From Escherichia coli (lineage in GTDB: Bacteria; Pseudomonadota; Gammaproteobacteria; Enterobacterales; Enterobacteriaceae): DNA of 64,000 bases. Made by a program: the position numbers and the translations under genes. Shown piece by piece: positions 45,193-49,261 of this stretch; the first letter of the stretch is position 1, and each line of letters starts with the position of its first letter. The notes under the pieces were generated by a model. The model worked only from the letters and a program-made list of their open reading frames with translations, was not told where the DNA came from and did no database searches. The DNA is taken from NCBI RefSeq assembly GCF_017348835.2, contig NZ_CP071375.1; one strand, written 5' to 3'.

Positions 45193-45306
45193 ATGAACAG
45201 CATACTGATAATCACATCTCTCCTTATCATATTCAGCATTTTTAGTCATGCCCTAATAAAATTAGGGATTGGCATATCCAATAACCCAGACAAAACCGAT
45301 GTATAA
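45193..45306 (+). CDS. Hypothetical small hydrophobic protein (37 aa)
   Basis: [37 protein letters not shown]; one predicted TM helix; weak ribosome-binding site. Confidence 0.3.
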
Positions 45307-45374
45307 GTCAACATATCCTGAATCAGACATACAATATCGCAATGAAAATCAATAATATTTTAAGGAATATCTTC

Positions 45375-45608
45375 ATGAAATCAAAAGACACCCTAAAGTG
45401 GTTCCCTGCGCAGCTTCCTGAAGTAAGAATTATCCTAGGGGATGCTGTAGTGGAAGTAGCAAAACAGGGAAGACCTATCAATACCAGAACATTGCTTGAT
45501 TACATTGAAGGAAACATAAAGAAAAAATCATGGCTGGATAACAAAGAATTATTACAAACAGCGATATCAGTTCTTAAAGACAACCAAAATTTAAATGGTA
45601 AAATGTAA
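45375..45608 (+). CDS. ydfK: Prophage cold-shock-associated small protein
   Basis: ORF starting MKSKDTLKWFPAQLPEVRIILGD after AAGGAA. Confidence 0.75.
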   Translation: MKSKDTLKWFPAQLPEVRIILGDAVVEVAKQGRPINTRTLLDYIEGNIKKKSWLDNKELLQTAISVLKDNQNLNGKM

Positions 45609-45924
45609 TATAATAAACTTACTTTTTTATCATTTTTCCACTTTAACAACATTTTGCTCCACTTTTCCACGACCAAACAACTTGAAATCTGGTTAAAATA
45701 ACACGCAACACTATTCTTCTTCCTTGAGTCCGCCCGGAACTCGAAAAACAAACCGAGTTAAAGCCATTTTTCACAAAATCGATTTTGGGTCTCACCAAAA
45801 TTACGGGGTTGCATACGCATTCGTTTATTTTCGAACGTGTACATACAAATATGCACAAAAATAATCAAAATTATTTTCTGAGATGCATTATGATATGAAC
45901 ACCAATTTCGTATAGAGTCTCACT

Positions 45925-46515
45925 ATGTCTCGAATTTTTGCTTACTGTCGGATATCAACGCTGGATCAGACCACCGAAAATCAACGCCGGGAAATCGAAA
46001 GTGCAGGTTTTAAAATCAAACCTCAGCAAATAATCGAAGAACACATTAGCGGCTCAGCAGCAACCAGTGAGCGTCCTGGTTTTAACCGGTTGCTTGCTCG
46101 CCTGAAATGTGGTGATCAATTGATTGTGACAAAACTGGATCGCCTTGGTTGTAATGCAATGGATATCAGGAAAACAGTGGAACAACTGACCGAAACAGGT
46201 ATCAGAGTGCATTGCTTAGCATTGGGGGGCATTGACCTGACCAGTCCAACAGGAAAAATGACGATGCAAGTAATTTCAGCAGTCGCTGAATTTGAACGAG
46301 ACCTTTTACTTGAACGCACTCATTCCGGGATAGTAAGAGCCCGGGGCGCAGGGAAACGTTTTGGTCGACCACCTGTGTTAAATGAAGAACAGAAACAGGT
46401 GGTATTCGAACGAATTAAGTCAGGTGTAAGTATAAGTGCCATTGCCCGGGAATTCAAAACCTCGCGGCAAACCATTTTAAGAGCCAAAGCAAAACTTCAG
46501 ACACCTGACATATAA
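45925..46515 (+). CDS. pinQ: Serine recombinase (DNA invertase/resolvase family)
   Basis: 196-aa ORF with N-terminal catalytic motif YCRISTLDQ and C-terminal HTH. Confidence 0.8.
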
Positions 46516-46612
46516 AAAATAATCTCGGTGTGAGATGCTTTACGTCTTCCAAGCCACCTTCCTTGCCGTAAATGGAAAGATACATCTAATTATAGAATTT
46601 ATATGTTTTACC

Positions 46613-47188
46613 CTACGGCAGTGCTGGCCATTCAATATCCTGTGCAGTTGACGTATCAACACGGTTCAGCAATACCCGATACTTTTTCCATGCTTCCAGC
46701 AACGAGATTTCTTCCTCCGTTGCAATTTCCAGATCTGCAGCATCCTGAAGCGGCGCAATATGCTCACTGGCTACCTGCATCAGGCTGTTTTTTGTTTCTT
46801 CCGCCTCCCGGATCCGGAACAGTTTTTCTGCTTCCGTATCCTTCACCCAGGCTGTGCCGTTCCACTTCTGATATTCCCCTCCCGGCGATAACCAGGTAAC
46901 ATTTTCCGGTAACGGACCGAGTTCAGAAATAAATAACGCGTCGCCGGAAGCCACGTCATAAACCGTTTTACCCCGATGATCTTCAACGAGATGCCACGAT
47001 GCCTCATCACTGTTGAAAACAGCCACGAAGCCTGCCGGAATATCTGGCGGTGCAATATCGATACTGTTTGCTGGCAGACCTGTATGAGGCGGAATATATG
47101 CGTCACCTTCACCAATAAATTCATTAGTTCCGGCCAGCAGATTATAAATTTTTATGGTCCGTGGTTGTTCACTCATTCTGAATGCCAT
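46613..47188 (-). CDS. tfaQ: Tail fibre assembly protein
   Basis: 191-aa Tfa-like ORF directly downstream of the tail-fibre C-terminus. Confidence 0.8.
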
Positions 47189-48741
47189 TATGCAAGCCTC
47201 ACAATATAGTTAAATGCGATGTTTTTGACGGTGTTTTCCGCGTTACCAGCAGCGTTAACGGTGATGGTATGTCCATGTGAACCAATCGCAACGGAGTGCG
47301 TATGAGCACCAATACCGACAGTATGTGCGTGTGCACCTGCGCTTGCAGCAGTACCCGATACAGAGTGCGTATGAGCGCCTGCAGAAGAAGTGTTAACACT
47401 GTATTTAGAGTAATCAGGTGATCCACTTCCCGGAGCACCACTGGAACCACCTGAAACAAATGTCATCGAATGGGTATGTGCACCGGCTGAAGCAGCCGTA
47501 CCGCTAACACTATGGGTATGCGCACCAGTGTTATTCGTGGATTTAGTGCCGTAATCAAACGACGATGTGGTTTTCGTCCCCAAATCCGTACTGGATACGC
47601 TGGCGCTGTGGGTGTGTGATTTAATGCCGTCCTGTTCCTGAGACAATACGGCTCGATCACTGGCGGGCTTGCCCTTAATCGTCCAGCCACGCATATCCCC
47701 TTTCGTTTTCATCCAGTCTTTGACAATCTGCACCCAGGTGGTGAACGGGCTGTACGCTGTCCAGATGTGAAAGGTCACACTGTCAGGTGGCTCAATCTCT
47801 TCACCGGATGACGAAAACCAGAGAATGCCATCACGGGTCCAGATCCCGGTCTTTTCGCAGATATAACGGGCATCAGTAAAGTCCAGCTCCTGCTGGCGGA
47901 TGACGCAGGCATTATGCTCGCAGAGATAAAACACGCTGGAGGGGTCATCCGGCGTCCATTTGAGGCCAAACGGCGTCTCTTTGTCGCCAAATTTAAGATA
48001 CTGCTCCTCCCCGCAGTGCGGGCAGGCAACATGAAAACGCATAAAATGCGGGGATTCACTGGCTGCACGCTCAATCTGGCAGGTGCCTCTCACTTTGGGC
48101 GTGGAGCCACGGATGGACTTTGGCCAGACCGAGCCTTCAATACGTTTGTCGCCAAGGAACGTCGGAGAGCCTTCCTGTTCAATATCCTCATCAAAGGCAG
48201 CAAGTTCATCATAACCCGCCACATCCACCGACTTTTCACGGTAGTTTTTTGCCGCTTTACCGCCCAGGCACCAGAAGCCACGACCATTGGAAAAACGCTT
48301 CATAGTGAGCGTGTTATCCCGGTGCTTTTTGCCATACCACGGAGCCAGCGCCAGCAGCGACGGAATATCGCGGATGGTCGGCTCAACGTGGGTTTTCATA
48401 AAGTTCTCGGCATCACCATCCGTCGGCAACCAGATAAGTGTGTTGCGCTGCTTATGCTCTATAAAGTAGACATAAACACCCAGCAGCATTTTGGAATAAC
48501 CGACACGGGCAGACTTCACCACATTCACCTCACGGATGTAGTCGCTGCCCATCGCATTCATGATGGCCCGCTGAAAGGGCAGTGTTTCCCAGCGCCCTTC
48601 CTGGTATGCGGATTCTTTCGGGAGATAGTAATTAGCATCCGCCCATTCAACGGCGGTCTGTGGCTCCGGCCTGAACAGTGAGCGAAGCCCGGCGCGGACA
48701 AAATGCCGCAGCCTGTTAACCTGACTGTTCGATATATTCAC
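47188..48741 (-). pseudogene. stfQ: In-frame fusion: lambda gpA-like large terminase N-terminal ~350 aa (47694..48741) joined to a side tail fibre C-terminus (47188..47693)
   Basis: ORF starts [23 protein letters not shown]... (lambda A) to ...[10 protein letters not shown], then switches to His-rich tail-fibre sequence ([20 protein letters not shown]...). Confidence 0.8.
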
Positions 48742-49261
48742 TCAGCAACCCCGGTATCAGTTCATCCAGCGCGGCTGCTTTGTTCATGGCTTTGATGATA
48801 TCCCGTTTCAGGAAATCAACATGTCGGTTTTCCAGTTCCGGAAAACGCCGCTGCACCGACAGGGGGATCCCGTCGAGAATACTGGCAATTTCACCTGCGA
48901 TCCGCGACAGCACGAAAGTACAGAATGCGGTTTCCACCACTTCAGCGGAGTCTCTGGCATTTTTCAGTTCCTGTGCGTCGGCCTGCGCACGCGTAAGTCG
49001 ATGGCGTTCGTACTCAATAGTCCCTGGCTGGAGATCTGTCTCGCTGGCCTGCCGCAGTTCTTCAACTTCCCGGCGCAGCTTTTCGTTCTCAATTTCAGCA
49101 TCCCTTTCGGCATACCATCTTATAACGGCGGCAGAGTCATAAAGCACCTCATTACCCTTGCCACCGCCTCGCAGAACGGGCATTCCCTGTTCCTGCCAGT
49201 TCTGAATGGTACGGATACTCGCACCGAAAATGTCAGCCAGCTGCTTTTTGTTGACTTCCAT
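48716..49261 (-). CDS. nohA: Terminase small subunit (lambda Nu1 homologue)
   Basis: 181-aa [45 protein letters not shown]...; overlaps the A start as in lambda. Confidence 0.9.

Follow-up and report, generated by a model that had tools for sequence, protein, structure and literature searches.

The pinQ and pinR genes of Escherichia coli are annotated as coding for DNA invertases, a module comprising pinQ and an upstream res array is found in about half of the complete genomes of this species, and a recent proposal casts PinQ as the founding member of a recombinase-activated anti-phage defence. We analyzed pinQ in a 64,000-nucleotide stretch of the E. coli contig NZ_CP071375.1 (hereafter called the window), which represents the left end of the Qin cryptic prophage and is 100% identical to strain PE164 over 2.5 kb. 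The gene (positions 45925-46515, + strand) codes for a 196-amino-acid small serine recombinase that is not an invertase of the Gin/Hin/Cin/Pin type, and that belongs instead to the res-dependent resolvase family, which includes the TnpR proteins of several Tn3-family transposons and plasmid multimer-resolution recombinases. Taking all the evidence together, we consider it probable that PinQ is a resolvase derivative with a res relic, a natively one-armed tail-fibre neighbourhood and no partner sites, and that it recombines poorly or not at all while still binding DNA.

The gene, both protein families and a published function are already known. What appear to be new, in the literature that we searched, are the placement of pinQ and pinR in the resolvase family, the eroded res that goes with them, the finding that the one-armed layout is native, and the fixation in a phage clade of changes of the R71C, R32Q and E56K types. 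If these proteins are indeed resolvase derivatives with a decayed res and without the catalytic arginine, then the invertase annotation is misleading, hunting for gix-like sites in fibre genes is pointless for the PinQ clade, and the published mechanism of inversion in trans needs a direct test. PinQ would also offer a natural case of a serine recombinase drifting toward a non-catalytic DNA-binding role.

A resolvase-family recombinase with an eroded res array

A previous sequence-only reading of this DNA had described pinQ as an intact invertase gene. The open reading frame (ORF) is indeed uninterrupted and carries an N-terminal catalytic domain and a C-terminal helix-turn-helix (HTH) domain (Pfam Resolvase, 1.7e-35; HTH_7, 3.8e-11), although the word ‘intact’ holds for the ORF only, because codon 76 specifies cysteine. 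Members of the Din family of invertases are roughly 60-70% identical to one another. PinQ is 38% identical over 183 amino acids to PinE, the invertase of prophage e14.

The genomic company kept by homologues of PinQ with 63-85% identity is that of resolvases. On plasmids, relatives occur in 1,650 records, of which 159 fall at 80-90% identity and another 1,355 at 60-80%. On a Klebsiella plasmid, a homologue with 79.6% identity is divergent from a 997-amino-acid Tn3-family transposase gene (DDE_Tnp_Tn3, 6e-150) across a 160-bp spacer, and a 74.6% homologue on an Erwinia amylovora plasmid adjoins parA/parG. When one genome per species was scanned, a Tn3-family transposase gene was adjacent in 22 of 80 homologue loci, whose products are 63-81% identical to PinQ. 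As in the Tn3/gamma-delta TnpR-res systems and plasmid resolvases, we find a small serine recombinase with Resolvase and HTH_7 domains, whose homologues of 63-80% identity reside beside Tn3-family transposases or parA/parG. Qin differs from these systems in that neither a transposase gene nor a plasmid backbone or partition locus accompanies pinQ, and in that it carries one res, whose subsites fall below the family range. A separate observation concerns Erwinia oleae (locus L014, around 1864-2068), where two divergent homologues, 73% and 79% identical to PinQ, have start codons 204 bp apart and mirror-imaged res arrays that apparently share one central site I.

The family res was defined from an alignment of the upstream regions, 145 bp each, of 74 distinct homologues. 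Site I is a 28-bp dyad of 12-4-12 architecture with the consensus nTGTCCGAAACCGAnCGGTTTCGGACAn, site II spans 34 bp (nTGTnCGAAAGTAAGTGAAATTnATTTCGGACAT), and site III (about 24 bp; ATTCGTACATCCnTTTCGGACGG) is followed by about 15 nucleotides and then the ATG start codon, with a conserved TATAAT located between sites II and III. In Tn3 res, the spacer of site I exceeds the one in site III by 3 bp, and the spacer of site II is 9 bp longer (PMC9943657). The length relations among the family subsites match these values, which supports their identity as res. The Tn3-type arrangement is preserved: three dimer-binding subsites of about 28, 34 and 24 bp immediately precede the gene, and they overlap its promoter.

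A single array homologous to the family res lies at 45811-45915 of the window, upstream of pinQ and not in the fibre gene. Each subsite was scored with a position weight matrix (PWM) built from the family. The homologue of crossover site I (GCATACGCATTCGTTTATTTTCGAACGT; 45811-45838, + strand) scores -2.7, compared to a family minimum of 17.8 and a median of 35.9. Site II (ATGCACAAAAATAATCAAAATTATTTTCTGAGAT; 34 bp; 45851-45884, +) scores 12.2 (family minimum 15.7, median 40.5), and the site III homologue (ATATGAACACCAATTTCGTATAG; 45893-45915, +) scores 18.5 (minimum 19.7, median 31.4). Random segments of the window have mean scores of about -50 to -62, and their 99.9th percentiles lie at -9 to -17 (-50 and -9, respectively, for site I). 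Since all three Qin subsites exceed the 99.9th percentile of random segments, their homology to the family res is not in doubt. At the same time, every subsite falls below the family range, and the crossover site is the worst affected. The res of phage 2H10 is less eroded, with scores of 3.1, 27.2 and 23.8 for the three subsites.

At the position of the family TATAAT, within the same conserved block of alignment columns, the Qin array has TATGAT (45889-45894, +). By analogy with tnpR and res, this is a putative -10 box of the pinQ promoter; a simple promoter scan did not call it. Because the array overlaps this promoter between sites II and III, PinQ probably represses its own transcription. 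We found no second res or partner site when the site I PWM was run over the 64 kb, where the best score was 11.4 and shuffled sequence reached 15.9. With a single eroded res and no second copy, PinQ would lack a recombination substrate in the window.

Two other sequence features near the array deserve description. Inside pinQ, CTGACCGAAACAG (46186-46198, +) is the sole 13-mer in the 64 kb that scores within the family half-site range (13.5; random 99.9th percentile 3.7), and this lone half-site without a dyad partner may be a chance occurrence. Also, a perfect 14-bp palindrome (CAAAATCGATTTTG; 45774-45787) overlaps a 7-6-7 dyad (ATTTTGG-N6-CCAAAAT), and the combined element at 45774-45801, which is unique in the window, lies 10-37 bp upstream of site I. 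Phage 2H10 carries AAAAATCGATTTTT in place of CAAAATCGATTTTG, such that the outer pair is altered on both sides and the symmetry is kept. We considered the palindrome and the nearby CAAAAT repeats as a new kind of crossover site and rejected this candidate, given that the element is unique, lies outside the family-conserved res, and has a poor half-site score.

A one-armed tail-fibre locus

The sequence-only reading had noted that a single tail-fibre tip and a single tfa gene adjoin pinQ, that no gix- or hix-like crossover site is evident between pinQ and tfaQ or in the fibre gene, and that the presumed invertase might have no local substrate. Our searches bear out each of these observations. 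The tfaQ gene (46613-47188, - strand; Pfam Caudo_TAP, 1e-42) codes for a tail-fibre assembly protein and is convergent with pinQ. The adjoining fibre tip (47188-47697, -; Phage_fiber repeat match) corresponds to the last 169 amino acids of a 1117-amino-acid Stf protein, and is 87% identical to residues 948-1117 of the 2H10 Stf. A tblastn search of the 64-kb window with PinE, StfP and TfaE revealed no second recombinase, fibre or tfa gene.

Searches for invertase crossover sites were likewise negative. The core AAACC-NN-GGTTT, with up to two mismatches, occurs 35 times in the window (33.7 expected) and not at all in 45304-48383, an interval that covers pinQ, the pinQ-tfaQ spacer, tfaQ and the fibre tip. 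The 26-bp Din consensus TTCTCNNAAACCNNGGTTTNNGAGAA, with up to three mismatches, has no match in the window, and hence no site of the type called pix in e14 is found there; the e14 pixL and pixR sites depart from this consensus at one and two positions, respectively. The inverted repeats between 44600 and 49300 do not exceed 25 nucleotides, match imperfectly (70-93%) and include no significant one, whereas the same search immediately recovers the e14 pix pair (21 nucleotides, 95%) as a positive control. The window therefore holds no invertible segment for PinQ.

The same layout is present in phages. According to tblastn, eleven deposited phage records, among them those of 2H10, Tritos, mEp460_ev081, HannyBb, Kati and Turner, code for PinQ at 98.5-99.5% identity. 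We inspected three complete genomes from among these (2H10, Tritos and Kati), and in each the gene order is J-(lom)-stf-tfa, followed by pin convergent with tfa, and then ydfK and the integrase region. None of the three has a second fibre arm, and all have a full-length Stf. Because the one-armed layout is shared by complete phages, Qin lost no arm, and the phage lineage shows no sign of ever having carried a second one.

This arrangement differs from that of the Din invertases, such as Gin of Mu, Cin of P1, Hin of Salmonella and PinE of e14, despite the common fold and size, the presence in phages, and the location beside tail-fibre and tfa genes. The e14 invertase gene, pinE, and the variable fibre end are divergently arranged, and pixR is located 55 bp upstream of pinE. 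In contrast, the pinQ locus lacks both paired 26-bp sites and a second arm, and pinQ is convergent with tfa. Din invertases use a Fis enhancer that resides in the 5' part of the invertase gene. The Din sites gix, hix and pix do share the inner motif AAACC...GGTTT with site I of the PinQ family; however, the spacer within this motif is 2 bp in Din sites and 4 bp in the PinQ family, which additionally has accessory sites II and III. As PinQ is not of the Din type and the kind of site cognate to it lies upstream of its own gene, a search for gix-like sites is the wrong test for this protein. If PinQ is a decayed resolvase, the missing invertase sites in the fibre genes are to be expected and are not the sign of a lost switch. 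The puzzle of an invertase gene without crossover sites thus becomes an ordinary one, since there was never a gix site to find.

Together, these observations suggest how the locus could have arisen. A lambdoid phage lineage, represented by Rac, Qin, 2H10, Tritos and Kati, carries pinQ as an accessory gene, located where its late operon ends. This lineage would have captured a res-pinQ resolvase module, and the position of pinQ beside stf and tfa would be incidental. The res of Qin has drifted below the family range, and the phage clade has fixed Arg71Cys, Arg32Gln and Glu56Lys equivalents.

A related search gave no two-armed precedent. We considered whether a two-armed fibre segment exists beside the homologue of Erwinia phage LS-2018a (62% identical), and found no inverted fibre arms there. 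This homologue follows a terminase-like ORF, as read from its translation, and has its own res with TTTAGTAC half-sites.

Substitutions in PinQ and the competing accounts of its role

At positions that are at least 95% conserved among 79 relatives, PinQ departs at eight: I10, Q35, A45, T47, K61, C76, I103 and T109. Three of these, C76, Q35 and K61, stand where all 79 relatives have Arg, Arg and Glu, and PinE also has Arg at the C76 position. HMMER alignment to gamma-delta resolvase equates the three residues with R71, R32 and E56, respectively, and these replacements set the Qin protein apart from Tn3-type resolvases. The codons are located at 46027-46029 (Q35), 46105-46107 (K61) and 46150-46152 (C76), the last of which is TGT in pinQ and CGT in the homologue from IncF plasmids.

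We compared PinQ with two functionally defined residue sets. From the catalytic set (Y6, R8, S10, D36, R68 and R71 in Tn3 numbering), PinQ retains Y7, R9, S11 and R73, has E39 in place of D36 as does its entire family, and has C76 in place of R71. In Tn3 resolvase, mutation of any of six residues, R71 among them, abolishes recombination and makes cleavage about 1000-fold or more slower, with binding to site I retained; specifically, R71A and R71K abolish recombination without abolishing binding (PMC2794168). The second set forms the regulatory (R, or 2-3') interface and consists of R2, R32, K54 and E56, and the double mutation R2A/E56K cuts resolution to less than 0.1% (PMC9943657). The corresponding residues are R3, R35, R59 and E61 in the family, and R3, Q35, R59 and K61 in PinQ of the window. 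The PinQ protein of strain K-12, which differs from that of the window at three of 196 residues, additionally has Q3. Judging from these mutational data for Tn3 and gamma-delta resolvases, PinQ has probably lost most or all catalysis and kept its ability to bind DNA.

The substitutions are not peculiar to Qin. Cysteine 76 is found in all the lambdoid copies that we examined, and a second phage-borne lineage (protein P0009, 84% identical to PinQ and encoded beside tfa) also has Q35, K61 and C76, indicating that the changes are old and fixed in the phage clade. The ratio of nonsynonymous to synonymous substitution rates (dN/dS) is 0.40 between the two phage lineages versus 0.15 between PinQ and the IncF plasmid copy, a pattern that indicates a constraint relaxed yet persisting. 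A distinct observation is that a prophage copy in E. coli (locus L094, 4841-5591; protein P0008) is a recombinant. Its site I and the left half of its site II are of the phage type, resembling 2H10, whereas the right half of site II and the sequence onward to the end of the gene's N-terminal half, with Arg76, are of the IncF-plasmid type. Sequence is therefore exchanged between phage and plasmid copies.

In searches of the Protein Data Bank (PDB) with PinQ, Gin (104 bits) only modestly outscores the gamma-delta and Tn3 resolvases (81-82 bits). Such scores alone do not decide between invertase and resolvase, and the decision comes from context; the low similarity to these two resolvases places PinQ in a different resolvase subfamily. 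Several observations weigh against our explanation. First, a changed specificity, and not decay, could lie behind the eroded res, although the recognition helix RQTILR is the same in PinQ and the IncF homologue. Second, the R71 mutants of Tn3 resolvase were described as ‘not inert’ (PMC2794168). Third, the ORF is intact, res plus pinQ is retained at a coverage of at least 80% in 2,751 of 5,426 complete E. coli genomes, and a dN/dS of 0.40 is still below 1, so that some function is probably retained. Two genetic results for K-12 PinQ, described below with the account that they favour, have the same bearing.

PinQ and PinR may be domesticated pseudo-resolvases, an idea that we put forward only tentatively. 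Such a protein would have kept DNA binding and dimerisation, would have given up catalysis (R71C) and synaptosome assembly (R32Q, E56K), and would work as a decoy or in regulation. One possible target is its own promoter, which it could repress by way of the res relic; upon induction, it could also sit on sites that belong to other serine recombinases. For example, PinQ bound at pix in place of PinE might bias the orientation of the invertible P segment of e14, which would explain the phenotype observed with phage T2 (see below) without catalysis by PinQ. Similarly, binding at the res sites of IncF plasmids or Tn3-family transposons might interfere with their resolution.

A rather unlikely alternative, in our assessment, is that PinQ is an active invertase that operates in trans. 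Kirigo et al. (NAR 2025 53:gkaf1041; PMC12529663) reported that overproduction of PinQ protects against T2, and proposed that PinQ inverts the e14 P segment: it would bind the pix sites, and inversion would yield a chimeric protein, StfE2, that blocks T2 adsorption. In that report, T2 survivors that overproduce PinQ carry a 1797-bp inversion, the inverted orientation reaches 88% with pCA24N-pinQ compared to 26-30% in controls, and deletion of pinQ lowers P-segment inversion. The effect is gone in strains with deletions of stfP, stfE or e14, and T2 induces pinQ and pinR transcripts 14-fold (PMC12529663). The gene, prophage and neighbours are the same as those studied here. The pix half-sites also have the AAACC core in common with the family site I (TTCTCCCAAACC vs TGTCCGAAACC). 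The suggestion in the sequence-only reading that PinQ might act on another prophage thus already has a published counterpart, in which overproduction of PinQ raises inversion in e14.

Direct catalysis by PinQ, however, is not demonstrated in that report. A pinE single mutant, in which pinQ and pinR are present, has its P segment locked in one orientation, and the strain list includes no overproduction of PinQ in a pinE-deleted background (PMC12529663). The report treats PinQ as an active invertase, and the sections consulted contain no mention of a resolvase affiliation, an upstream res or Cys76. In addition, PinQ lacks the equivalent of the catalytic Arg71, and the K-12 protein tested lacks the equivalent of Arg2 as well. 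We considered whether the pix half-sites could be family-like half-sites, which would rationalize action in trans, and rejected this because the resemblance is weak: they score only -3.7 on the family half-site PWM, compared to a family median of 16.8. Moreover, the AAACC-GGTTT spacing in pix is 2 bp and not 4 bp. A recombinase acting alone should push the orientation of a segment toward about 50:50. PinE gives 49%, and the far higher value seen with PinQ suggests selection or an indirect effect. Finally, the window has no pix site, and an e14-type P segment with pinE is found at a coverage of at least 80% in only 170 of the 5,426 complete genomes, versus 2,751 for res plus pinQ; a role specific to e14 therefore cannot explain the wide retention of pinQ.

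It is improbable, in our view, that the res-pinQ module is a working resolvase system that recombines direct res repeats, such as those in phage genome dimers, or related res on IncF plasmids and Tn3-family transposons. The three subsites are still recognizably homologous and correctly spaced, the DNA-binding helix is conserved with plasmid homologues, the gene is retained in complete phage genomes, and the L094 copy recombined with an IncF-type copy inside site II, indicating that the two pools meet. However, PinQ has substitutions at the Arg71 equivalent and at two of four regulatory-interface positions, including a change of the E56K type that blocks resolution, crossover site I is the most eroded subsite, and the window has a single res. 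The L094 junction falls within site II, away from the centre of site I, and so looks homologous rather than site-specific.

Least credible is the possibility, advanced in the sequence-only reading, that PinQ is a Din-type invertase left over from a two-armed segment whose second arm and crossover sites were lost as Qin decayed: the name ‘pin’, the adjacency to stf and tfa, which is also seen in e14, Mu and P1, and the heavy deletion of Qin would fit, but this is already contradicted by the equally one-armed phages with full-length stf, the convergent orientation of pinQ, the low identity to PinE, and the presence of a resolvase res, not a pix site, upstream of pinQ.

The surrounding segment of Qin

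The gene order in this part of the window is ydfI, ydfJ' (truncated by the prophage), ynfT, ydfK, pinQ, tfaQ, a 517-amino-acid ORF, and nohA. The left neighbour of the pin module, ydfK (45375-45608, +), codes for the cold-shock protein YdfK according to the RefSeq annotation of PE164, which is 100% identical here. Rac and the phages 2H10, Tritos and Kati likewise have ydfK to the left of pin.

On the other side of the module, the 517-amino-acid ORF (47188-48741, -) is a chimera in which residues 1-348 of gpA are joined in frame to the last 169 amino acids of Stf, with the junction near 47697. Its gene A portion (47698-48741, -; Pfam GpA_ATPase, 1.7e-50, amino acids 47-285) is the 5' part of the terminase large-subunit gene and is annotated in PE164 as ‘phage terminase large subunit family protein’, and the fibre tip occupies codons 349-517. 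Homology to stf-bearing prophages stops at 47697. The fusion arose through a deletion in which the genes that separated gene A from the 3' end of stf were lost. The nohA gene that comes next (48716-49261, -) is annotated as a small terminase subunit of the Nu1 type (Pfam Phage_Nu1, 2.4e-101). Qin of K-12 has a different internal deletion, which leaves a 320-amino-acid stfQ abutting nohA, and thus Qin lineages have lost the region from terminase to fibre tip with different end-points.

The remaining observations concern variation within the fibre module. A His-rich region of GAHTHS-type repeats in the fibre tip (47376-47495) does not align with K-12 stfQ, whereas its flanks are 98.8% identical, which suggests a polymorphism in repeat number or sequence. 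In another Qin copy (strain EC6563, L004 8309-9471), an IS3 element resides within the 97-bp spacer between pinQ and tfa. The last 111 nucleotides of tfaQ (46613-46724) mark a mosaic boundary and travel with pin and ydfK. In Rac of E. coli B (L003 8314-8424), this 3' fragment of tfa alone is kept beside pinR and is followed by an unrelated fibre module, and the boundary within tfa is recurrent. We considered a site-specific junction at the tfaQ boundary (46724) and rejected it, as no dyad or repeat is present; homologous exchange within the conserved C-terminus of Tfa is the simpler explanation.

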